A model generated the notes under the pieces. That model was given only the letters and a program-made list of their open reading frames with translations, had not been told where the DNA came from and did not search any database. Source: Erysipelotrichaceae bacterium (GTDB lineage Bacteria > Bacillota_I > Bacilli_A > Erysipelotrichales > Erysipelotrichaceae). Taken from it: a stretch of DNA of 64,000 nucleotides. Where the stretch lies: contig JAEEHC010000059.1 of the NCBI GenBank assembly GCA_016280635.1, positions 6,787 to 70,786 of the forward strand, in the 5' to 3' direction. Shown here in pieces: positions 50,790-61,219 of this stretch (its first letter is position 1; every line of letters starts with the position of its first letter). A program made the position numbers and the translations under genes.

Positions 50790-52424
50790 TTACTCACCAC
50801 CAGCGGTCAGATACACCATTACGATGAAGCTGATGATGCCAAACCAGACCGCCAGAGAGACCGGCGGCACGAACAGTGCTCTAAGCACCATGGTGACTGT
50901 CTCCCGCTTGATATTGATTTTCAGCTTTTGCCTATGTCTCTTCTTTCGGCCCTTTTCATCGATCACATAGATCCAGGGCTTTTCGTGCAGCTCAACAATG
51001 CCGAATTTCAACAGATAAACCGGTACTACCGGAACGGCAATGCAGAACCAGGCCGCTGAACCGCCCAACGATAGTTTTTCAAAATCAAAGCCGTTGATCA
51101 GCAAGGCACAGATGACCGGCAGAAACAGTGCGACAAAGCACAGAAGAACCATTCTGGCGATTCTCAACGGGGTAGTAAAGCGCAGAATGACCGGCTTATT
51201 CTCCCCATCCAGATTTTCAAAGTAGACCGGTGGTATGATCTTGCGTTCAAGCACCCGGTCGCTGAGTACCAGCTTACCGTATTCTCTCTTGAAGGTCTTC
51301 TGGCCGGAAGTGTGGACATCATATTCGCTTTCCACGATGAAGCGGTTGTGCACGGTATCGCTGTACAGGCATAGGATGACGATGATGAAAAACAGCGCCA
51401 GAATACCGGTTATGTACAGGCTTTCCCCGCTGTTCATGCCAAAGGCCCTAAAAACCAGGAAACTGATCAGGCTGAAGGCAACGGTAGCAATGATGGCCTT
51501 CAGCCACCAGGGCAGAAAGTAATACTTCTTTTTCTTCAATGAACGCACGGCAACCTTGCCGCTCTGACCGTTGACCGCCGCCATCAATTGATCGTGGCAG
51601 ATATAATAGACAGGCAGTAAGACCGGCAAGCGCATGGCATCGCTGACATCAGCCGCCACTTCCACGGCCCGGCTCTCAAGGGTCTTACGGATGGCAGGAG
51701 AATAGATTTCCCCGGCCTCCTTGCGGGCTCGCTCTTCCATTGTCTGCTGACCGATGTCAGGTATTCTGACCTGCTGGCCGGCCACATAGCCGAAGTCAAA
51801 GCCCTTAAGATCCTTGAAGTCAAACGGTTCCATGCCGTCCAGCAGTAAATTATCCAGCTGTGAGGAACAGTTAACGAATTCATCGTTGATGAAACCTTCG
51901 CAGCGGTATGCCCTGAATCCGTCCATCCGGCTCACCTTCATATGCACCGGACCGCGGATCAGCTGATAAGGCAGATAAAAGCCCTTGAGATCATCCACCA
52001 ATTTCCGAAGCTCTCTGGCTTCCTTTTTGGACCGATTCTGCTGGCACCACTGCCTTAGCTGCTGCCTGGCTTCTGGGAGCGTAACCGCAAAGGGAATGAC
52101 ATTTTCCGGCAGTTCCTCAGCCTTCAGATATTCACTTCTTACCAGTGCCCGGCCGCAGAAGGCGCAGGTACTGACCGCTTCATTTTCATCAAAGACGACT
52201 TCAGCGCCGCAACCGCCGCAGGACGCCTGAAAAAGCCGGAAGCTGTCTCTGGTCTGCTGCAAATGGCCGATGCGCATCCGGCGGAAACCCTGAGTCTGCT
52301 TCTGGGCTTCGTCAATTCCGACTCTTGAACCGCAATGCGGGCAGCCATAGTCCTGGTGAACGATGTCAAAACGGGCGGGTGAGCCGCAGTTTGGACAATG
52401 GATATCCGTTATTCTCTCGTTCAT
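50790..52424 (-). CDS. Double zinc-ribbon protein with C-terminal multi-pass membrane domain, unknown function
   Basis: Ribbons are CPNCGS..CPHCGS and CGGCGA..CAFCGR. There are four or more TM helices after residue ~320. An AAGGAGA RBS precedes the ATG at 52424. It lies 16 nt upstream of the GRE start. Confidence 0.65.
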   Translation of the reverse strand: MNERITDIHCPNCGSPARFDIVHQDYGCPHCGSRVGIDEAQKQTQGFRRMRIGHLQQTRDSFRLFQASCGGCGAEVVFDENEAVSTCAFCGRALVRSEYLKAEELPENVIPFAVTLPEARQQLRQWCQQNRSKKEARELRKLVDDLKGFYLPYQLIRGPVHMKVSRMDGFRAYRCEGFINDEFVNCSSQLDNLLLDGMEPFDFKDLKGFDFGYVAGQQVRIPDIGQQTMEERARKEAGEIYSPAIRKTLESRAVEVAADVSDAMRLPVLLPVYYICHDQLMAAVNGQSGKVAVRSLKKKKYYFLPWWLKAIIATVAFSLISFLVFRAFGMNSGESLYITGILALFFIIVILCLYSDTVHNRFIVESEYDVHTSGQKTFKREYGKLVLSDRVLERKIIPPVYFENLDGENKPVILRFTTPLRIARMVLLCFVALFLPVICALLINGFDFEKLSLGGSAAWFCIAVPVVPVYLLKFGIVELHEKPWIYVIDEKGRKKRHRQKLKINIKRETVTMVLRALFVPPVSLAVWFGIISFIVMVYLTAGGE

Positions 52425-52549
52425 TGAAATCTCCTTGATAAACTTCTGCTTACAGTATAACACGCTTATCATCTTCTTTCGTAAAGCCGGTTAATTCTTG
52501 AATAACCACAGTGAGGAATCAGTCATCAAAAAAGCCGCTCATTGGCAGC

Positions 52550-52813
52550 TTAGCGGTCATCATAATGATAGCGACAGGACAGTATGAAGATACTTTCCTC
52601 TTCGATCCGGTAGATCAGTCGGTCCTTTTCATTGATTCTGCGACTCCAGTAGCCGGTAAAGTTGCCGGTCAGCGGTTCGGGCTTGCCGATTCCGGCATTG
52701 CCGTTGCGCTCAATGTCTTCAATAAGCCGGTTAATTCTCTTAAGCGTCTTACGGTCTTCAACTGTCCAGTAAAGGTAGTCTTGCCAGCCAATGTCGGTGA
52801 ATAACTTAATCAT
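52550..52813 (-). CDS. yoeB: YoeB/Txe-family toxin
   Basis: MIKLFTDIGWQDYLYW...DRKTLKRINRLIEDI.R....GIGKPEPL......YWSRRI...DRLIY......I.ILSCRYHY. Confidence 0.9.
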   Translation of the reverse strand: MIKLFTDIGWQDYLYWTVEDRKTLKRINRLIEDIERNGNAGIGKPEPLTGNFTGYWSRRINEKDRLIYRIEEESIFILSCRYHYDDR

Positions 52814-53072
52814 TCGACACCTCAACAAGGTCATGCTTGGTTACCCTGCCGGATTCCAGTTGTCTTTTTGACTCCATGAGGCGATCATAATATCCCTTAT
52901 CCTTCATGATGTAGATGTTTTCCAAAAGGTTGTTATAAGCCGCTTCGGAAATGACCACGACATTTCGGTTATCCTTTCTGGTAACGATAATGGTTTCATA
53001 GTCATCAGTGACCAGATCCAGATTTGTCTTCATGTTCTCCCGGAACTGGGTGTAATTCACCGCAATCATCAT
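52806..53072 (-). CDS. yefM: YefM/Phd-family antitoxin
   Basis: 88 aa with the NYTQFRENMKTNLDLVTDDYETIIVTRKDNRNVVVIS pattern. It overlaps the yoeB start by 8 nt. Confidence 0.9.
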   Translation of the reverse strand: MMIAVNYTQFRENMKTNLDLVTDDYETIIVTRKDNRNVVVISEAAYNNLLENIYIMKDKGYYDRLMESKRQLESGRVTKHDLVEVSND

Positions 53073-53122: not shown

Positions 53123-53407
53123 TTGACTTGAAAGCTTCCCTAATGCAGACACGTACATATGCCGATATATACTATTATTTGCGGCAAATTCCCGAAATCC
53201 TATCATACAACTGTCTTAAAACCATTATCAGTTTCAGGATTTCCGGCAGCGGCAGGCTAATAATTCATTACTGATCGCAGCAAGGGTGATCAGGCCTTGT
53301 TCTCAAAAATCAGCAGTTTATCATACACTTTAATTACTACTTTTAGTAGCAATTATAGTAGCAAATAAATCCCATTTCTGTTATAGTGATTGTACGGAGG
53401 TCCGCTT

Positions 53408-54718
53408 ATGAATCTTGGCATGGAAACGGAAAAAATCGAATTCAAGAAAAGTACGGCTGAGCTTAAGCAGGGAATCATTTCCCTGAGCGCCATGCTGAAC
53501 AAGCACGGCTATGGCACCCTTTACTTCGGCGTGAAGGATGATGGGGAAATAGCCGGCCAGCAGGTCTCAACCGGCACGCTGCGAGACGTTTCCCAGGCCA
53601 TCGCTGGTTTCATAAAGCCTCAGGTAATTCCCACGATCGTATTGGAACTCTTGGACGAGAAGAATGTCATCAAGGTGTATGCTGAAGGCAATGATTCTCC
53701 CTATAGCGCTTACGGCAGGTATTACATGCGCTCTGCCGATGAAGACCGGGAACTGTCACCCGAGCAGCTCAGAAGCCTGATGATCAGGAAGCAGGAAACC
53801 GACACGATCTCCCGGATCACCAACGATGACCAGAAACTATCCTTCAGGCTGCTGAAGACCGCGTTCATAGAAAAGGGGCTTTCAGTAGATGATGCCACCT
53901 TTGAAACTAACATCGGACTGAAAAACGACAACGGCAAATACAATCTGATGGCCGGTCTGCTGGCTGACACTAACAGCGTTTCCATCAAAACGGTCGTTTT
54001 CAAAGGCACCGACAAACTGGAAATGTTGAGAAGGAATGAATACGGCAACAAATGTCTGATCACCGCCATGGACCAGGTCATCAGTTACATCGAATCCCTC
54101 AACGAGACTTCTGTCAGCATTACCGCCCACCAGCGTCAGGACAGCCGGCTTTTTGACATGGCCTGCTTTAGGGAAGCCTGGATAAACGCCTGCCTGCATA
54201 CCCGCTGGGACAAGCTGAATCCGCCGGCGGTATATGTGTTTGCGGACCGAATTGAGATCATCTCCATGGGAGGGCTGCCTCAGGATCTGAGCCAGGAAGA
54301 GTTCTTCCGAGGCATCAGCCGACCGGTCAACATCAAACTTCAGAAGATCTTCGGGCAGTTGGGCTATGTTGAACAGACCGGCCACGGCATTCCCTTGATC
54401 ATTTCCCGCTATGGCCGGCAGGCATTTGACATCTCCGATAACTATGTTAATGTCACCATTCCCTTCTCCCGAAAACCGGATGGTCACAGCTTCTCCTCTT
54501 CATTGAACAACGCTCAGCAGACTGTTGCCGGACTTCTGAAAGATCATCCCGAGTTCACCATTAATGATCTTGCCAGACATACCGAATACAGTGAGAGTTA
54601 CATCAGAAAGATCATATCCGAGTTAAGATACCGGAACATTATAAAAAGGAAAGGCTCAAAGAAAACCGGATCATGGCAGGTGTTCCAGGGCAGGCAATCA
54701 GCTTTCAGGAAGAACTGA
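53408..54718 (+). CDS. AlbA_2 (Schlafen-like) DNA-binding domain protein with HATPase_c_4-like and C-terminal wHTH regions
   Basis: A GGAGG RBS precedes the ATG at 53408. The N-terminus is ETEKIEFKKSTAELKQGIISLSAMLNKHGYGTLYFGVKDDGEIAGQ. The C-terminus LARHTEYSESYIRKIISELRYRNIIKR is HTH-like. Confidence 0.75.
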   Translation: MNLGMETEKIEFKKSTAELKQGIISLSAMLNKHGYGTLYFGVKDDGEIAGQQVSTGTLRDVSQAIAGFIKPQVIPTIVLELLDEKNVIKVYAEGNDSPYSAYGRYYMRSADEDRELSPEQLRSLMIRKQETDTISRITNDDQKLSFRLLKTAFIEKGLSVDDATFETNIGLKNDNGKYNLMAGLLADTNSVSIKTVVFKGTDKLEMLRRNEYGNKCLITAMDQVISYIESLNETSVSITAHQRQDSRLFDMACFREAWINACLHTRWDKLNPPAVYVFADRIEIISMGGLPQDLSQEEFFRGISRPVNIKLQKIFGQLGYVEQTGHGIPLIISRYGRQAFDISDNYVNVTIPFSRKPDGHSFSSSLNNAQQTVAGLLKDHPEFTINDLARHTEYSESYIRKIISELRYRNIIKRKGSKKTGSWQVFQGRQSAFRKN

Positions 54719-54924
54719 ACAAACTGAACGCCCTTTTATCAGCAAGACCTCAATCGGTCCTTATAAAAAAGCCTGAGCCTCAAAAAAAGCACTATAACTC
54801 ACTAAAACAACTGCCCGGCAAAACACCGGACAGTTAATATTTCACATGTAAGATTGTAATAATATTTTGCAAGTATACTAGACATGCCAACGAGTAAAAC
54901 ATTACTTACACACTTATCTTGACA

Positions 54925-55779
54925 CTACCATATAATGTACCTTAATAAGCCTCGCTTATCATGGCATAGTATTATTTTATTCAAAGAATGAACTAATTCG
55001 TAATCGCAGTTTTTTTCAATGTTAACATATTCTTTTTCGTCTCTATTTAACCACTTAATTCGAACCACATTATTTGGATAATCAATTCTATATCCACTGG
55101 TATTGAAAGCATATATCATTTGCTGTAGCTCATTAAAGAATCTTTCTGTCAACTTTTCACTAATTTCTATCGTTATGTTGATGTAATCATTTTTACTTCC
55201 GTGGCTCTCTATATGCATAACACTTCTTATTCTGTCAAACGAAACTAATGAATTAACACTATTTACTGGAGTAAAACTATATCCGTGACGATTTCGTTCG
55301 AATTTTATAATTGGTTCATGCAAATCACCACGCCGATATTCACGGAGGTCTTTAAGCAATCGTCTCTTCAGTTTAATATACGATTTATCGCCTAAAACTT
55401 CCTTTATTCTATCTAGATCTTCGTTTTCCCAAAATCTATCCTGAATGTCTTTGTAACTATTTATGCCCAAAACAACTAATTGGCTTACAACATCGTTTAT
55501 GTTCGACCAATTATTTTCATTCCAATAATCAACAATTTTCTTATATTCTTTGAGGCTTCTTTCCATTTTCCAATTTTCCTCTATTAAGTCATAAACTCTC
55601 AAAGCTATTCTTTCGTTATTCATTATTGAGTTTATTGGATAGCCACATACTTCTTCCGCCTCAAAAAGGTTTTTCTTAAGTCCTTCAATATCTACAGTAA
55701 AATATTCATCACCATAAAAGAATCTGCACTGTTGTTCGATAAAACCGCCATTAATTTTGTTCCAATCGTCATACTCCAT
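54925..55779 (-). CDS. Hypothetical protein (no recognisable domain)
   Basis: 284-aa ORF, AT-rich and soluble, with no motif I can assign. Confidence 0.55.
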   Translation of the reverse strand: MEYDDWNKINGGFIEQQCRFFYGDEYFTVDIEGLKKNLFEAEEVCGYPINSIMNNERIALRVYDLIEENWKMERSLKEYKKIVDYWNENNWSNINDVVSQLVVLGINSYKDIQDRFWENEDLDRIKEVLGDKSYIKLKRRLLKDLREYRRGDLHEPIIKFERNRHGYSFTPVNSVNSLVSFDRIRSVMHIESHGSKNDYINITIEISEKLTERFFNELQQMIYAFNTSGYRIDYPNNVVRIKWLNRDEKEYVNIEKNCDYELVHSLNKIILCHDKRGLLRYIIW

Positions 55780-56004
55780 ATTTATCTATTCCTCCCTTAT
55801 TATACTGAACAACTATCATATAATCCCCATGTTCCAAACAACAAACTCTATAGTTTAATAATTCTATTGCATATAGTGCTCATGGATTGCTACCAACGCT
55901 ATGGATGGCTTAGCAGTTCGCACCATCCAAAGCAATGATTCTATTCTTGTTTGCTTTCTATTCTAAACAGTGTTCCTAGCGCCACCATTTAGTACAAAAT
56001 TTTT

Positions 56005-56604
56005 CTATGGCACAAGTTTCGCCCCTCTGAGTGCTTTGTATACGTTCTTACAATAATTCTCCTTGCTTGCGTTAATTCTATGAAAATCAGAATAATGAGG
56101 TATCTTCACAATTTTATTTTTATTACGCAAGTACCTTCGCAGATATCTATATACCAAACCACCTATTGCTATTATTACGATTTCATTTTTTGGCGATAGA
56201 ATCTGTATCTCATCCTCAAGTTCACTAATATCCCGTTTTACTTCTACCGGATTATTCTTTACATAGTCTCTGACTCTATCACTATCCACATCGACAAAAT
56301 GCTTAAAAAGATCAGTTATATAACTTCCCCAAAATGGATTCCCGATTTTGGCAAAGGCATAGCACAACTTAAAGTCTCGCTGTCTTTTAGAATCAGAATG
56401 AAAGTTTTTGAATTTTATGTATTGTTGTGCTCTTGATGGATTAAGCGCAACAAAGATATATTCGTTATTCAACTTATTTACTATTCCAGTATTATGAAAA
56501 AATGAAATACAATCAACATTTTTCCAATTATTCCAGTATACAAAACTAGAGAAATCTCCATATTTTGTTTTCAACTCATTAAATTGACCAGTACTTATTC
56601 CCAT
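56005..56604 (-). CDS. Hypothetical protein; weak resemblance to the uracil-DNA-glycosylase superfamily
   Basis: The motif-A-like segment is IFVALNPS and the motif-B-like segment is KIPHYSDFH near the C-terminus. The ATG at 56604 has an AAAGGA RBS; the ORF opens at 56634. Confidence 0.5.
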   Translation of the reverse strand: MGISTGQFNELKTKYGDFSSFVYWNNWKNVDCISFFHNTGIVNKLNNEYIFVALNPSRAQQYIKFKNFHSDSKRQRDFKLCYAFAKIGNPFWGSYITDLFKHFVDVDSDRVRDYVKNNPVEVKRDISELEDEIQILSPKNEIVIIAIGGLVYRYLRRYLRNKNKIVKIPHYSDFHRINASKENYCKNVYKALRGAKLVP

Positions 56605-56818
56605 ATTGTCCTTTCTTGATAGTTTTCTGACCATCCTTATTCAAATTATGAACTAAACAGCATGTATCATTTACTTCTAAATTAAACACGCAATGAATTA
56701 TGATATGTACCCGGAATCCTGATCATAGGAATTAAACCAACTATACCACAGAATTACAGATGGATGCTTTTTTGAATGACTAAGCAGTTATTCCATAAAT
56801 GAAACCTAAACGAAATGT

Positions 56819-58474
56819 TTAACTTGACATCTTCATTCTTTTCAATAACACAAATAAAACAACAACTAAAACAAAGATAACTGTAACTGAATATGTCACA
56901 CGTTTCTTTTCTTGCTTTTTCTTTACATTTAAGAATGAGCAAACAACATTACTGGCAAAAACAATGATGTGTTTAGAAATGTATAATATGAATCCTATAA
57001 TGAGAGTCAAAAGAAATGCAACAATTGCAGATTCTATTATTTTTGCTGGAATTTCTCTATAACCATCATCGCTATAAATCGTCAAACCCAATGTCAGTAC
57101 GACAAACAGAACAATCAAAACTTTCCATATTGATATTCCTTTTTTTGGTGTATTTTGTGTTTGTGGTTTTCCATTGTGTTTGTATCCTACACTGGAGGAT
57201 TGTGCGCTGTTGCTTATCTTCTGATTAGAAGTTGATAGCTTTTTGATTGGTGCAGAACCTTGGTAATAACTTCCAGAATACTGCTGACCAGCAACAGTAT
57301 TTACAGGTTGTGATGAAATATTGATATTTTTTTGGGGGGTTCCATACTGCGTCTTGCCATGAATTGAATGATTTCCGCCAGAAGGATTTGGAGCATTTAT
57401 TGGTTGGCCCCAACTAATCTGCTGCGTATGACCATTTTTGTTTGATATATTGTATAAGGCATCAAGATATCTTTCATCTGCTGCACAATATGGGCACTTC
57501 GAATTAGCCTTATAGTAATAATGATTACTGTTTTTTGAACACAGTATTAGATTCTTACTATACTCTGTTAATGCAGCATCCCATTCATCAGCGGTCGGCC
57601 TTCTCTTTGGATCCTTTCTCCCCTCAATAAACGCCCTTGTAAACAAGATTTGAATTTCTCGGGGGAAAGAGCTCAGCTCAGGAACAGCCAATGACAATGG
57701 TTTGTTTCCCGGCTTAAAGCAGTAGTTGTCTCTCTCTATCGCTTCTATGCCGTACCCAGGTGAAGCGGTTGATCTATTCTCATCATTCTTTATACCGTTA
57801 AACGGTGTAAAGCCGTTCATAAGCAGTTTGAAGATATGGATGGCAAGTGAAAACCGGTCTGTTTCCTGAGTGAATGTAGGTAATGGTGCATTCGCGTAAT
57901 CTGTTCCCTTACATTGTTTTATCAGTTCCGGTGCTGTATATTCTTTTTCACAGGCAACACATCGGTATGTCTTTCCGGTGTTCTTATCATTAATATGGTA
58001 TCCGTCAGTATCAAAGAAACCAATATGTCCTGTACTAAGATTAACGCCTATATTTCTCGGGTTGAAATCACCAAACACATACCCAGCCTTGTGGACTGTT
58101 GAGATAACTCTGCATATGTTGATTGCGATCACTATTTTCTTCTGGTTGGTCAGTATAGGAGTCTTATTAGGATCATATTTATACAAATTATGCAAGACTT
58201 CCTTAGCATCCATCATCGGCATTATGAAACCGCAGAACTGGTTTCTGCTGTCATACAGGATATCCAAAGGCCAGGCAATATCAGTCAAAACTGATCGATC
58301 CGGAGGATTGTTGGACATATAAGTAAGCTTATTTTCATACTCCTTAGTTGGGGTAGAGTAAATCTTCGCAACAATATCGTTCCGATTATTTACCTTATAT
58401 ACTGTTCCTTCACCGCCAGAGCCTAATGGTTTATCTGCTAAATCGTAGTTTCTTTTTCTTCCTTTGAACAACAT
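56819..58474 (-). CDS. Hanks-type Ser/Thr protein kinase with zinc-ribbon, Q/S/N-rich linker and C-terminal multi-TM anchor
   Basis: G-loop LGSGGEGTVY, VAKIY Lys, catalytic loop GDFNPRN, DTDGY (DFG-equivalent) and TAPE. After these come C..(x14)..CPYC, a low-complexity tract and 3-4 TM helices. Confidence 0.85.
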   Translation of the reverse strand: MLFKGRKRNYDLADKPLGSGGEGTVYKVNNRNDIVAKIYSTPTKEYENKLTYMSNNPPDRSVLTDIAWPLDILYDSRNQFCGFIMPMMDAKEVLHNLYKYDPNKTPILTNQKKIVIAINICRVISTVHKAGYVFGDFNPRNIGVNLSTGHIGFFDTDGYHINDKNTGKTYRCVACEKEYTAPELIKQCKGTDYANAPLPTFTQETDRFSLAIHIFKLLMNGFTPFNGIKNDENRSTASPGYGIEAIERDNYCFKPGNKPLSLAVPELSSFPREIQILFTRAFIEGRKDPKRRPTADEWDAALTEYSKNLILCSKNSNHYYYKANSKCPYCAADERYLDALYNISNKNGHTQQISWGQPINAPNPSGGNHSIHGKTQYGTPQKNINISSQPVNTVAGQQYSGSYYQGSAPIKKLSTSNQKISNSAQSSSVGYKHNGKPQTQNTPKKGISIWKVLIVLFVVLTLGLTIYSDDGYREIPAKIIESAIVAFLLTLIIGFILYISKHIIVFASNVVCSFLNVKKKQEKKRVTYSVTVIFVLVVVLFVLLKRMKMSS

Positions 58475-58549
58475 GTTTCGACCTAAATTACCACTACTTT
58501 ATACTTATCAAATTCTCGCTATTGTGATTTTAGGCAATAAAATCGTTGA

Positions 58550-59644
58550 TCATTTCTTTTTTTCAACTATGTCTTGTCCTAGAATCTTTTTTATACCAAA
58601 AGATAATTCGTACCCAAAGATTTTTATTTTCCTTTTGGCAGCATCTTTTCCCCCTCTTTTATTGTCGTTGATTTTTTCACTTTTCGTTTCTATGTCCGGA
58701 TGTCCTTTCTGATTTGCTATCTGATTACCAGACTTTTCATATCCATCTTTCAGTTCGTCAACATCATTTATTTCCTTTTCTTCATCATATAAGTGGGGAT
58801 ATGCCTCTCTTCGAAAAGCATCATCATACTCTTCTTTAAGTTTCTGCCAATCAGGTGCCTTATAGTATTCATCATCAAGTCTCTTAGGAACTACATTTGT
58901 GTCAATCATTACAAGAATTGTCTTATCATCATTAACTTGTGAACCTGGAATACTGTCAATGTAAGCTTCCATTTTCTCTTGAACTTTTTTTTCTCCGTTA
59001 TGCTTGAAATCCAAGTTTTCTTCACTCATGAAATAATGTGCCAATGCTACATAAACGGGGTCTTCATTCTTTTTTAACAGATAAGGGAATAGTGTTTCAA
59101 AAATCCCATCTGTTGCCATCAGAACACCAGCCACGTTTTCTACATACCCAAATTCCCATTTCTCCTCACCAAACCATAATGGATAAACACGGCCATCTTC
59201 ATCTTGCTGCTTTGTTGTTACCCTTTCATATTTTCCGGACTGATTTAAAACCATAATTCCACTATCTCCGGCATTACCAAAATACAAATTGCCGTTAAGG
59301 TAAACAGCAACAACCAAAGTTGTATCATATTGATCGGCTTCATCCCCATTTTGGTCTATCATATAATTGATTTTAGTAAGTGAATCATTAAAGGAATTCC
59401 TAATCACTGCCAAAATCTCTTCAGCCGTTTCTTCTCCTGTCAGATGTTGCTTACAGAAAGCAACTGAATTCTCTGCCGCTATTTTTGAAGCAATGTCAGA
59501 TTTACTCTCACTTCCTAAACCATCTGCCACAGATGCAATCGCAAAACGCTTTGATACCAGTGAATATTCATGCGCATCCTGGCAAACTATATTATTCTCA
59601 ACATGATATGTTCCTTGTCTTGTTATGCCATAATGATATATCAT
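58550..59644 (-). CDS. PP2C-family Ser/Thr phosphatase with charged C-terminal extension
   Basis: VADGLGS, NAGDSGIMV, ATDGIFE and DDKTILVM. I chose the start at 59644 because of an AAAGGA RBS; the ORF opens at 59713. Confidence 0.85.
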   Translation of the reverse strand: MIYHYGITRQGTYHVENNIVCQDAHEYSLVSKRFAIASVADGLGSESKSDIASKIAAENSVAFCKQHLTGEETAEEILAVIRNSFNDSLTKINYMIDQNGDEADQYDTTLVVAVYLNGNLYFGNAGDSGIMVLNQSGKYERVTTKQQDEDGRVYPLWFGEEKWEFGYVENVAGVLMATDGIFETLFPYLLKKNEDPVYVALAHYFMSEENLDFKHNGEKKVQEKMEAYIDSIPGSQVNDDKTILVMIDTNVVPKRLDDEYYKAPDWQKLKEEYDDAFRREAYPHLYDEEKEINDVDELKDGYEKSGNQIANQKGHPDIETKSEKINDNKRGGKDAAKRKIKIFGYELSFGIKKILGQDIVEKKK

Positions 59645-59805
59645 TGTTTTTCCTTTCATGATAATGAATTCTATCCTATTTAGAAGGTTTACAATTAAAT
59701 CATTTCTATACATATGGTAGTGAATAAATGCGAAGCCAGCGGTTTATTGTTGTCTCATACAAGTCATTGGCTTCGCATTAAAATTCTTGTATCTAATGGA
59801 TAAAA

Positions 59806-60480
59806 TTACATTAATTCGTCAATCGTTACAGTACTGGGCAATGCCTGTCCTTTTGCCTTTTCGCCCGGAGAACTAACTGAAACTGCTCTCATACTCTTGT
59901 TTACCCAATCAAAGAAACCGGTGAAATCATAATCTGCAAGTTTCAAGACTCTCTTGCCTGATAACTTATGTAACACTTCAGTATCCGCTCCTTCAACAGC
60001 TAATGACCAGAAAGCCAATTTACCGTATTCAACCCTATCATTAATTGCATTTGCCATGGCATCTACATCATCAAACGGCTTGCCGTCGCTTATGAGAATA
60101 ATCCAAGGCTTGTACGGCTCAGTGCCTGTTCTCCTATAAAACCTTGATCTATCATCTACCATCTGTATAGCCCTACTTAATGCATCAGCCATATATGTAG
60201 AGCCATCAGCTACAAAATCAACATGCTGCATAGTTTCAATTGGCGTAAAGTCCTGAATGACTTCCCAATCTGTGCTAAATCTGATGATAGCTATATCAAG
60301 GATGTCTCTTGTTTTTGAATCAGCACATACTTGTTCTTTAAAGCGATTCATCCCTTCATTCAATTCATCAATTGGCTTTCCTTTCATTGATGCAGAAGTA
60401 TCTACCAAAAACAATAACGCCATATGTGGGTCACTCGGATTCACAATCTGTGGTGAATCTCCAAAATTAATTTGTGTCAT
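59806..60480 (-). CDS. vWA-domain protein (TerY / YegL-like)
   Basis: MIDAS residues are DTSASM, GSTYM and ISDGKP. The blocks PWIILISDG and FWSLAVEGAD are collinear with E. coli YegL as I recall it. It has a GAAGGAGA RBS. Confidence 0.85.
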   Translation of the reverse strand: MTQINFGDSPQIVNPSDPHMALLFLVDTSASMKGKPIDELNEGMNRFKEQVCADSKTRDILDIAIIRFSTDWEVIQDFTPIETMQHVDFVADGSTYMADALSRAIQMVDDRSRFYRRTGTEPYKPWIILISDGKPFDDVDAMANAINDRVEYGKLAFWSLAVEGADTEVLHKLSGKRVLKLADYDFTGFFDWVNKSMRAVSVSSPGEKAKGQALPSTVTIDELM

Positions 60481-60562
60481 AACTCCTATCTCCTTCTATG
60501 TTTTCCCCGTTTCATACGGGTTTAATCTACTAAAATCTTAACTTTTGAAATGCAGAATTTGC

Positions 60563-60991
60563 TCAACTTTTATAGGAAGCGTTTGTCTTTTTTTCACCTT
60601 TGCAATATAAACACCTATATGTTTCAAGATAATGCGACCTAGTCGCTGGAACGGTTTGATCATAGGTAGCAATAACCTCTCCGTATTTGTTTCTAATCTT
60701 CTGTCTTACAGTTTTTGTTGCTGGCGAATCACCTAAATACTGACTGCTCTCCTTCACCATGGCAAATCTTTCATTGCAGAACGGGCATCTAGTAAAAAAG
60801 CCGCAAATCTGCCACATTAGTGTGTCAACAAAAAAACAAATAATGGCTGCAGCTAACAACCCGGAAAAACCGGATGTCAGTGAAAATAACAAAACGAATC
60901 CATCAATAATTGCCAAAATAATAACCAATGTTTTCTGAATAGGATTATTATCGATTTTTCGAAAAAATGAATCAATCTGGTTGTTACTCAT
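60563..60991 (-). CDS. Small membrane protein: two TM helices plus C-terminal zinc-ribbon
   Basis: A GGAGG RBS lies 5 nt before the ATG at 60991. The TM segments are LVIILAIIDGFVLLF and LLAAAIICFFV. The ribbon is CPFC...(x47)...CLYC. Confidence 0.65.
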   Translation of the reverse strand: MSNNQIDSFFRKIDNNPIQKTLVIILAIIDGFVLLFSLTSGFSGLLAAAIICFFVDTLMWQICGFFTRCPFCNERFAMVKESSQYLGDSPATKTVRQKIRNKYGEVIATYDQTVPATRSHYLETYRCLYCKGEKKTNASYKS

Positions 60992-61187
60992 ATTTTCCTC
61001 CAATAAAGTTTACAATTATAGACAAAAAAAGCCATTAAAAACATCCCAAAATGGTGTCAAAAATCAGCTTTTTTGGTACAATAAATGCAAGAGAGAACGA
61101 TCCAAAAATGTAAAGATTTTTGGATTTTTTATTGATTAGTCTACAATCGTGTGGTTGAAACTATGCCTATTACCTCATCTTTCCATG

Positions 61188-61219
61188 ACAAAACTCAGGC
61201 ATTATCACATGCCTGAGTT
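61188..61219 (-). terminator. Terminator after gdhA
   Basis: 11-bp stem AACTCAGGCAT / ATGCCTGAGTT. On the minus strand it is followed by TTTT. Confidence 0.7.

Follow-up and report, generated by a model that had tools for sequence, protein, structure and literature searches.

Introduction

TerY-P triads, as defined in PMC11090510 (citing Anantharaman 2012) and PMC4978471, combine a TerY-like protein bearing a vWA (von Willebrand factor type A) domain, a PP2C phosphatase, and a serine/threonine kinase fused C-terminally to a zinc ribbon. The corresponding proteins of Escherichia coli are YegL, PphC and YegI; experiments have established the last of these as an integral membrane protein that has two transmembrane (TM) helices (bioRxiv 10.1101/819920). 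Triads of the YegL/PphC/YegI type are widespread, occurring in E. coli K-12, gut Clostridia, Anaerolineae and spirochaetes. Here we analyse a 64,000-nucleotide stretch from an Erysipelotrichaceae bacterium (contig JAEEHC010000059.1, positions 6,787 to 70,786; the whole stretch is called the window), in which a four-gene operon encodes such a triad together with a small membrane protein, the product of its first gene, g1.

Several described systems bear on what such an operon might do. TerY-P triads are associated with secretion genes of the WXG100/FtsK type (PMC4978471, PMC11090510) and protect against T7-like/Autographiviridae phages (PMC7699616; bioRxiv 10.1101/2022.08.12.503731); Pseudomonas aeruginosa cells protected by TerY-P mostly survive infection (bioRxiv 10.1101/2022.08.12.503731). 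Where the triad definition has a zinc ribbon, the kinase of the anti-phage system has an OB fold (PMC11090510). The TerY-P system of Gao 2020, as modelled in PADLOC, and its P. aeruginosa variant follow the same three-domain logic as the triad in the window and provide the only experimental evidence for what such triads can do. In the Esr pathway of oral Actinobacteria, a vWA protein and a serine/threonine kinase and phosphatase relay a cell-surface threat to the secretion of Esx effectors (bioRxiv 10.64898/2026.09.08.750141).

On balance we think it probable, though by no means assured, that the locus in the window is a horizontally acquired, membrane-associated serine/threonine phospho-switch of the YegL-PphC-YegI (TerY-P triad) type, with the g1 protein as its membrane partner and with a role in conflict or stress. 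This refines a known system and does not overturn current views: the triad and the tail of its kinase were already known, and the new element is g1, a juxtamembrane zinc-clamped domain of an undescribed family. The loci that carry g1 represent a minimal, four-gene version of the triad in which this small membrane protein is the sole candidate for an input or an output, and g1 thus offers a clean genetic handle on the triad.

A vWA-PP2C-kinase triad on an AT-rich island

The operon comprises four co-directional open reading frames (ORFs) on the minus strand. A first-pass annotation, made by a model from the sequence, had placed the four genes at the coordinates listed here and had described the surrounding DNA as AT-rich; the ORFs and the GC profile confirm both.

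60991-60563, minus strand: g1, 142 aa, 2-TM four-cysteine protein, first gene of the operon
60480-59806, minus strand: vWA gene, 224 aa, YegL/TerY-like, with an intact metal ion-dependent adhesion site (MIDAS)
59644-58550, minus strand: PP2C gene, 364 aa, serine/threonine phosphatase
58474-56819, minus strand: kinase gene, 551 aa, Hanks-type serine/threonine kinase
54500-61200: AT-rich island, containing the operon and two unrelated minus-strand genes (209 aa and 284 aa)

Over approximately 54.5-61.2 kb the GC content is 0.29-0.41, against 0.50-0.56 in both flanks. The island therefore lies about 15 points under the surrounding DNA and is compositionally foreign, and we read it as horizontally acquired.

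All three domains of the triad score above the curated Pfam cut-offs, and every motif named in the first-pass annotation, those of g1 included, is present. The vWA protein matches VWA (3.4e-10) and VWA_2 (4e-9; the curated cut-off is passed by VWA), and its MIDAS is complete, with DTSAS at residue 27, DGST at 92 and SDG at 131. The phosphatase matches PP2C_2 (3.1e-22) and PP2C (7.4e-7), the former above its curated cut-off, and the NCBIfam Stp1/IreP model at 2e-13, below cut-off; its metal-binding motifs are all found (DGLG at 41, GDSG at 126, DGI at 179, DDKT at 239) in a catalytic domain spanning approximately residues 1-260, which is followed by a charged, lineage-specific C-terminal tail. 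The kinase matches Pkinase at 1e-12 and has GSGGEG at 18, VAKI at 35, DFNPRN at 136, DTD at 155 and APE at 181; K37, D136, N141, D155, D157 and the APE motif are invariant in the family alignment. By these motifs the kinase and the phosphatase are catalytically complete and the vWA protein is MIDAS-competent. Searches of Protein Data Bank (PDB) sequences with the vWA protein and the kinase returned no match.

The triad is of the same type as the E. coli yeg genes, as the first-pass annotation had proposed, with direct homology for two of its three proteins. For the vWA protein the counterpart is YegL, at 37% identity across 204 aa (E 6e-39); for the kinase it is YegI, at 31% identity across 331 aa (E 1e-38), in an alignment that spans the C..H..CxxC zinc knuckle. 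The match of the phosphatase to PphC is weak, BLASTP aligning 66 residues only at 29% identity (E 2e-6). The E. coli K-12 genes are interrupted by yegJ, with yegI standing apart, whereas the genes in the window form a contiguous operon on a foreign AT-rich island; the E. coli yeg locus has no gene resembling g1.

The assignment to the TerY-P type likewise holds on comparative-genomic grounds, since the locus has a MIDAS-bearing vWA protein, an adjacent co-directional PP2C gene, a kinase-zinc ribbon fusion and a conserved three-gene neighbourhood. In a scan of GTDB, taking one genome per species, 38 triad loci were recovered from Clostridia, Bacilli, Anaerolineae, Treponema and Bacteroidota. 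The order vWA-PP2C-kinase is found in approximately 30 of them and in all Logan/ENA loci examined that were of sufficient length; its recurrence in dozens of unrelated contigs is far beyond chance. Compared with the TerY-P definition, the locus differs in that the kinase is membrane-anchored and a fourth gene, g1, is present, and no ter (tellurite-resistance), McrBC/CoCoNuT or DNA-processing genes occur in the window.

The link that the first-pass annotation drew from this triad to the reported anti-phage system proved to be indirect. The vWA protein scores only 18.4 bits (E 3e-4) against the PADLOC TerY model, no PADLOC model matches the phosphatase, and the kinase has weak matches to generic kinase models only (PD-T4-6, mad6, MkoA). 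These scores, together with the OB-fold kinase of the anti-phage system (PMC11090510), indicate that the triad in the window does not belong to the experimentally validated branch. The E. coli YegL, PphC and YegI proteins fare the same against the PADLOC TerY-P models, with marginal matches at most. Among PHROG families, the vWA protein matches phrog_28389 (1e-40), and the kinase also matches a family.

The kinase tail is a family feature

The first-pass annotation described the C-terminal tail of the kinase as a zinc ribbon, a Q/S/N/G-rich spacer and three or four TM helices, and regarded it as unexplained. The ribbon and the spacer are there and the helices number three, but the tail is no anomaly. 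Four segments can be distinguished.

57554-58474, minus strand: catalytic domain, kinase residues 1-307, Hanks-type, YegI family
57437-57553, minus strand: zinc knuckle, kinase residues 308-346, C-x5-H-x8-CxxC followed by a helix, packs on the kinase domain
57140-57436, minus strand: disordered linker, kinase residues 347-445, Q/S/N/G/P/T-rich
56819-57139, minus strand: membrane anchor, kinase residues 446-551, three TM helices, no ectodomain

An AlphaFold model is confident for residues 1-346, the knuckle included, with a predicted local distance difference test score (pLDDT) above 90 in the catalytic domain; residues 349-445 are disordered (pLDDT below 50), and residues 336-440 consist to 62% of Q/S/N/G/P/T. 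The catalytic domain has an eukaryotic-type fold, Foldseek retrieving eukaryotic-type kinases including PknB (E approximately 1e-10). In the zinc site, C312-x5-H-x8-CPYC, the residues C312, H318, C327 and C330 are invariant in 27 homologues. Hydropathy places the TM helices at approximately 446-469, 477-497 and 526-546, and the model has helices at 449-469, 477-514 and 529-546; the protein ends 7 residues past the last TM helix.

More than 500 relatives of the kinase are present in the protein collection searched, and the tail was surveyed in the 120 best homologues. Of the 120, 115 have the C-H-C-C knuckle; in 110 of these it is followed by one or more TM helices, with a median of 96 residues between the knuckle and the first helix. 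In YegI, too, the catalytic domain is followed by a zinc knuckle, a linker and TM helices. Because the family, YegI and the published descriptions (PMC11090510; bioRxiv 10.1101/819920) all show the same arrangement, the tail is not an extra part of this operon. The integral membrane topology of YegI is experimental and that of the window kinase is predicted, and YegI has a long cytoplasmic C-terminal region past its TM helices that the window kinase lacks. The Gao 2020 kinase has a C-terminal OB fold, whereas past its knuckle the window kinase has only the linker and the three helices.

A single TM helix is present in 56 of the homologues, with a C-terminal region beyond it whose median length is 320 residues. 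These C-terminal regions are hypervariable, and among kinase relatives they contain BspA-type LRR, NPCBM, SH3_3, RCC1, DUF6273, TPR and FGE-sulfatase domains. As read from their sequences, such relatives have the layout of receptor kinases. The window kinase is typical of its family, and its sole peculiarity is the three-helix anchor without an ectodomain. Among the loci that carry g1, kinase tails vary as much as elsewhere, from three TM helices and no ectodomain to one TM helix and a 392-aa ectodomain.

Kinases approximately 30% identical to that of the window also occur on 2,363 plasmid records, mostly of conjugative plasmids from Klebsiella, Escherichia, Salmonella and Enterobacter; presumably these are the kinases of ter-operon-linked TerY-P triads.

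g1 encodes a juxtamembrane four-cysteine protein of an undescribed family

The g1 protein begins with a 2-TM hairpin (approximately residues 17-38 and 42-66), and its two cysteine pairs, CPFC at 69 and CLYC at 127, both lie past the hydrophobic helices. No match was found in Pfam, NCBIfam or PADLOC, and PHROG yielded a marginal match of 20.6 bits only. A word-indexed search found g1 alone, but the protein is not an orphan, since 129 representatives, missed by the word-indexed search, came up at E<=1e-3 when phmmer was run exhaustively. Most of these relatives are 100-150 aa long, and in some the g1 domain forms the C-terminus of a larger multi-TM protein. In an alignment of 49 sequences the four cysteines are invariant, within the conserved core RCPxC...N..GEVIGT.EQ.VPGTR..Y...Y.CKYCG.

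AlphaFold models g1 with an overall pLDDT of 89.8, rising to 96-98 in the C-terminal domain. The TM hairpin leads at once into a long three-stranded beta-ribbon (residues 78-100, 106-127 and 133-141), and the cysteines, which by sequence position fall where strand 1 begins and about where strand 2 ends, probably clamp the ribbon at its membrane-proximal end. The domain is basic, with 14 K/R against 7 D/E and thus a net charge of about +7; conserved Thr residues in the VIAT and PATR loops of g1 are candidate phosphorylation sites. Foldseek identified no structural relative: the best PDB hit has an E of 0.3, and the best BFVD hit an E of 0.012 at a TM-score of 0.2. A profile search of PDB sequences returned generic CxxC knuckles only.

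Effectors with two TM helices and a small cytoplasmic beta domain exist, for example Cap15 of CBASS systems, and the 2-TM effectors of other defence systems act by oligomerising and perturbing the membrane or blocking DNA entry. The g1 protein shares with Cap15-type effectors the gross layout of an N-terminal TM hairpin and a compact beta-rich cytoplasmic domain. It differs from them in that this domain is a zinc-clamped three-stranded ribbon and not a barrel, with no structural match from Foldseek, and in that no generator of a nucleotide signal is present.

g1 accompanies the triad in a narrow clade

Five loci have kinases with 64% or more identity to that of the window, and in each of them the gene directly upstream of the vWA gene is a g1 homologue. 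These loci (the window itself/L001, L002/L003, L042, L064 and L065) are independent and have different flanks. The gap between g1 and the vWA gene is 82 bp in the window and 14-34 bp in the other four. Within this clade the g1 proteins share 35-41% identity (37% between L002/L003 and the window, E 2e-39) and diverge in both halves, against 75-79% for the vWA proteins, 60-67% for the phosphatases and 64-67% for the kinase cores. The contrast between g1 and its neighbours, taken with the hypervariable kinase tails, indicates that the membrane-embedded parts of the system evolve fastest.

Outside this clade the association disappears. No g1 was found in any of the 38 triad loci from GTDB, where kinase identity to the window does not exceed 57%, nor in two further loci with kinases of 61% (L071) and 58% (L072) identity. 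A search of JGI metagenomes with the g1-clade alignment found no locus, and the g1 protein cluster has a single member, on 3 contigs. The co-occurrence of g1 with the triad, which the first-pass annotation had put forward for checking, is thus upheld for the close loci (5/5) and fails both for the distant ones (0/38) and for distant relatives of g1, which are unlinked to triad genes. As judged from these sequences, g1 is a conserved accessory of a narrow clade only.

L072 (1-3249) differs from the other loci: ahead of its kinase are encoded a 527-aa Band_7 protein, which carries multiple zinc ribbons, and a 230-aa membrane protein, and vWA and PP2C genes are both absent.

The layout of g1 and its place in the operon raise the alternative that the locus is a genuine anti-phage system of the TerY-P-like kind, in which g1 supplies the missing effector. 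Infection would activate the kinase, the phosphorylation state of the vWA protein or of g1 would shift, and g1 would oligomerise and perturb the membrane or block DNA entry. Triads of the same architecture do protect against T7-like/Autographiviridae phages (PMC7699616; bioRxiv 10.1101/2022.08.12.503731); the foreign island adjoins a toxin-antitoxin pair and a Schlafen-type gene; and g1 is fast-evolving, heads the operon behind a strong ribosome-binding site, and has the layout of a 2-TM protein with a beta-rich cytoplasmic domain in an operon with no other effector. The validated systems, however, have OB-fold kinases and no g1 (PMC11090510), the triad is not recognised by PADLOC models, and g1 has no structural similarity to known membrane effectors. 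The survival of most TerY-P-protected P. aeruginosa cells is, moreover, contrary to abortive membrane killing (bioRxiv 10.1101/2022.08.12.503731). Nor was a direct link to phages found: in sequenced phages there is next to no trace of g1 or the kinase, a phage search giving no match for g1 and two weak matches for the kinase in metagenomic phage contigs. We consider this explanation rather unlikely.

Sister triad loci carry ATPase, transglutaminase and toxin cassettes

Approximately two thirds of the 38 distant triad loci carry additional cassettes encoding ATPases, transglutaminases or toxins, and about a dozen, some of them short, do not. An FtsK/HerA-type ATPase of 1,000-1,250 aa is present in 9 of the 38, a TrwB-like ATPase, usually with a 428-aa partner, in approximately 12, a transglutaminase in approximately 10, and a Tox-HNH toxin in 7, one of these with a SUKH-2 immunity gene. 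Integrases adjoin several triad loci, including L002, L009 and L011. None of these cassettes occurs in any g1-clade locus.

The cassettes take two forms. In L071 (2993-9841; likewise in L066/L067 and L015:1685-7978) the PP2C and kinase genes are separated by an inserted cassette, which comprises a 1,251-aa FtsK/SpoIIIE ATPase, two proteins of 88-95 aa that are possibly WXG100-like, a Gln_amidase (glutamine-deamidase) toxin, a 94-aa gene, a transglutaminase and a 112-aa gene. A different accessory set lies upstream of the triad in L014, L016, L019, L024, L026, L027, L031, L033, L035 and L038, and consists of a TrwB/TraG-like coupling-type ATPase (approximately 441 aa), usually a 428-aa protein of no known family, and often Tox-HNH-HHH toxins; in L016 a SUKH-2 (Syd) immunity protein is encoded between PP2C and kinase. 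The relatives of the window triad thereby match the published association of TerY-P triads with FtsK/WXG100-type secretion genes and nuclease toxins. With their transglutaminases, FtsK-type ATPases, toxins and kinases with variable ectodomains they also resemble the Esr pathway, by analogy only, and the window has no MoxR ATPase, FHA protein, beta-propeller sensor or Esx genes.

A further alternative is that the four-gene operon is the remnant of a larger toxin-export system of the kind just described (FtsK/TrwB-type ATPase, transglutaminase, polymorphic toxin), formerly under the control of the triad, alongside which g1 was fixed as an unrelated small gene. The prevalence of cassettes among the distant loci and their absence from the g1 clade would fit such a loss, as would one distant g1 relative (L047) that adjoins an FtsK/SpoIIIE gene. 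Yet all four genes are intact with complete catalytic motifs, and the four-gene order is kept in five loci despite the 35-41% identity of g1, implying selection on the unit. The dozen or so distant loci that are also free of cassettes mark a bare triad as normal. We regard degeneration of this kind as very improbable.

In the anaerobe branch of the triad, then, receptor-like kinases with hypervariable ectodomains have repeatedly been wired to FtsK/TrwB-type ATPases, transglutaminases and polymorphic toxins. Both the receptor-like kinases and the repeated cassettes support the sensing of conflict over the sensing of tellurite or metal. They also bear on another alternative, in which the triad would serve general envelope or physiological signalling towards housekeeping targets, with g1 as a mere membrane scaffold and without a role in conflict. 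The direct homology to chromosomal E. coli yeg genes with no known defence phenotype (bioRxiv 10.1101/819920), the lack of a nuclease, toxin or NTPase in the operon, and the housekeeping genes in the flanks are all compatible with such a role. It is at odds with a GC content about 15 points under the flanks, which marks a recent acquisition, with a g1 cluster of one member on 3 contigs, with relatives that adjoin integrases and carry toxin and secretion cassettes, and with hypervariable kinase C-termini of the sort expected of conflict-type sensors. Such a housekeeping function seems to us improbable.

A model for the four-gene module

If the locus is, as we think probable, a membrane-associated phospho-switch with g1 as its membrane partner, the kinase and the phosphatase would form a reversible switch that controls, at the membrane, how far cytoplasmic targets are phosphorylated, the kinase being tethered to its three-helix anchor by the predicted disordered linker of approximately 100 residues. 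The vWA protein would act as a MIDAS-dependent adaptor or substrate, as has been proposed for TerY-P triads, and g1 would be the clade-specific membrane-side partner of the switch. The module as a whole would serve a response to conflict or stress (phage, competitor, envelope damage) rather than housekeeping. The operon is without a classical effector enzyme, in agreement with the first-pass annotation, which saw no effector-like enzyme. We favour, and hold loosely, the view that on the membrane side g1 serves the switch as a regulated output or as a docking site, and not as the primary sensor. The reasons are that output cassettes with ATPases and toxins are missing from this clade, through loss or because they were never there, that g1 is the first gene of the operon, and that evolution is fast in the membrane-embedded parts, g1 and the tail of the kinase.

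Several observations weigh against this model. The strands of g1 are polar and basic, not amphipathic, and Foldseek revealed no recognisable enzymatic or pore-forming fold. Two ways of coupling g1 to the kinase were considered and rejected: g1 as a substitute for a lost kinase ectodomain, since the kinases of the g1 clade range from no ectodomain to one of 392 aa, and a conserved intramembrane Asp of g1 paired with a Lys in a kinase TM helix, since that Lys is present in the window kinase only and not in the homologues P0003-P0006. In the wider g1 family, none of approximately 20 loci has a vWA, PP2C or kinase gene within 6 kb, a sample in which many are one repeated human-gut locus type and two contigs are too short to judge; the link between g1 and phospho-signalling is accordingly limited to one clade. 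A role in defence is, finally, suggested here by analogy only.

A bolder form of the model would make the g1 family a new group of juxtamembrane zinc-clamped beta-ribbon proteins that serve as the membrane output (or input) of a serine/threonine phospho-switch, and the four-gene module a self-contained defence or conflict system with a phosphorylation-controlled 2-TM effector. We rate this as rather unlikely; if g1 did prove to be a 2-TM effector, it would be the first concrete effector for a YegI/TerY-P-type triad.

Other settings of the g1 domain

Distant g1-type genes occur in tandem pairs with one member fused to DUF6994, next to an FtsK/SpoIIIE gene (L047), or next to a gene for an FtsH-like protease without TM helices. 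Two FtsH-like proteins of the latter kind (AAA + Peptidase_M41), encoded in L002 (2690-3976, 428 aa) and L069 (1264-2577, 437 aa), are 39% identical (E 4e-106) and lie within approximately 2 kb of g1-family genes in loci that are otherwise unrelated. The TM-less FtsH-like protein, which is not encoded in the window, is a candidate second partner that recurs with the g1 domain.

On contigs from human-gut metagenomes (L048-L062 and L045; for example L050:4519-7851) the wider g1 family occurs in a conserved trio, formed by a large multi-TM protein with a C-terminal g1 domain, a g1 protein of 151-159 aa and a 312-aa protein of no known family. The multi-TM protein has an N-terminal DUF6994 domain in L050, and no kinase, phosphatase or vWA gene lies near the trio.

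Expression signals and neighbouring genes

The remaining features of the island concern the expression of the operon and the two genes that lie downstream of it.

60992-61190, minus strand: upstream non-coding region between the gdhA terminator hairpin and g1
59730-59776, minus strand: stem-loop in the vWA-PP2C gap, GCGAAGCCA, 29-nt loop, TGGCTTCGC, then ATTTATT; 9-bp stem, read from the sequence
56005-56634, minus strand: UDG-like gene, 209 aa, uracil-DNA-glycosylase superfamily (22 bits, below the 24.3 cut-off)
54925-55779, minus strand: gene of no known family, 284 aa

A terminator scan called a hairpin at 61192-61219, assigned as the gdhA terminator, and the promoter of the operon presumably lies between this hairpin and g1, where a candidate TATAAT is found approximately 25 nt ahead of the g1 start codon. 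A Shine-Dalgarno sequence, GGAGGA, precedes the ATG at 60991 by 5 nt, and for this reason that ATG is preferred as the start of g1 to an upstream TTG. The start of the PP2C gene is likely 59644 rather than that of a longer ORF from 59713, since homologues align from residue 1 of the 364-aa version. The vWA-PP2C gap, at 161 bp, is unusually long compared with 5-30 bp in homologous loci. Its stem-loop was not called by the terminator scan and is a possible attenuator or partial terminator, which could reduce the expression of the phosphatase and the kinase relative to g1 and the vWA protein.

The UDG-like and 284-aa genes were rejected as parts of the system because no homologue of either was found in the other triad loci. 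A hairpin resembling a terminator, at 54836-54808, lies 3' of the pair. No tRNA was found within 40-64 kb, no Rfam element within 54-61.5 kb, and no convincing att-like repeat at the island borders. An imperfect direct repeat of 22 nt (53298-53319 and 61052-61073, 82% identity), perhaps due to chance, brackets the stretch from the Schlafen gene to g1, with no integrase or tRNA near it.

The flanks consist of housekeeping genes. To one side lie those for a PFL-like glycyl-radical enzyme with its activase, for NanE and for a nitroreductase; to the other lie gdhA and a putative ORF of the purine nucleoside phosphorylase-like kind. The GdhA proteins nearest to that of the window among named ones belong to Erysipelotrichaceae MAGs (85% identity), so that an uncultured member of this family is the probable host. 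A 560-aa protein with two N-terminal zinc ribbons and several TM helices is encoded at 50790-52472 on the minus strand, its start overlapping the PFL-like gene at the latter's end. The protein bears no relation to g1 and was rejected as a part of the system because other triad loci contain no homologue of it. Adjoining the island are a YoeB/YefM toxin-antitoxin pair (52550-53072) and a gene for a protein with Schlafen AlbA_2, HATPase_c_4 and HTH domains (53390-54718; phrog_12156, 1.6e-75), which by their predicted identities would lend the region a flavour of defence or mobile elements.

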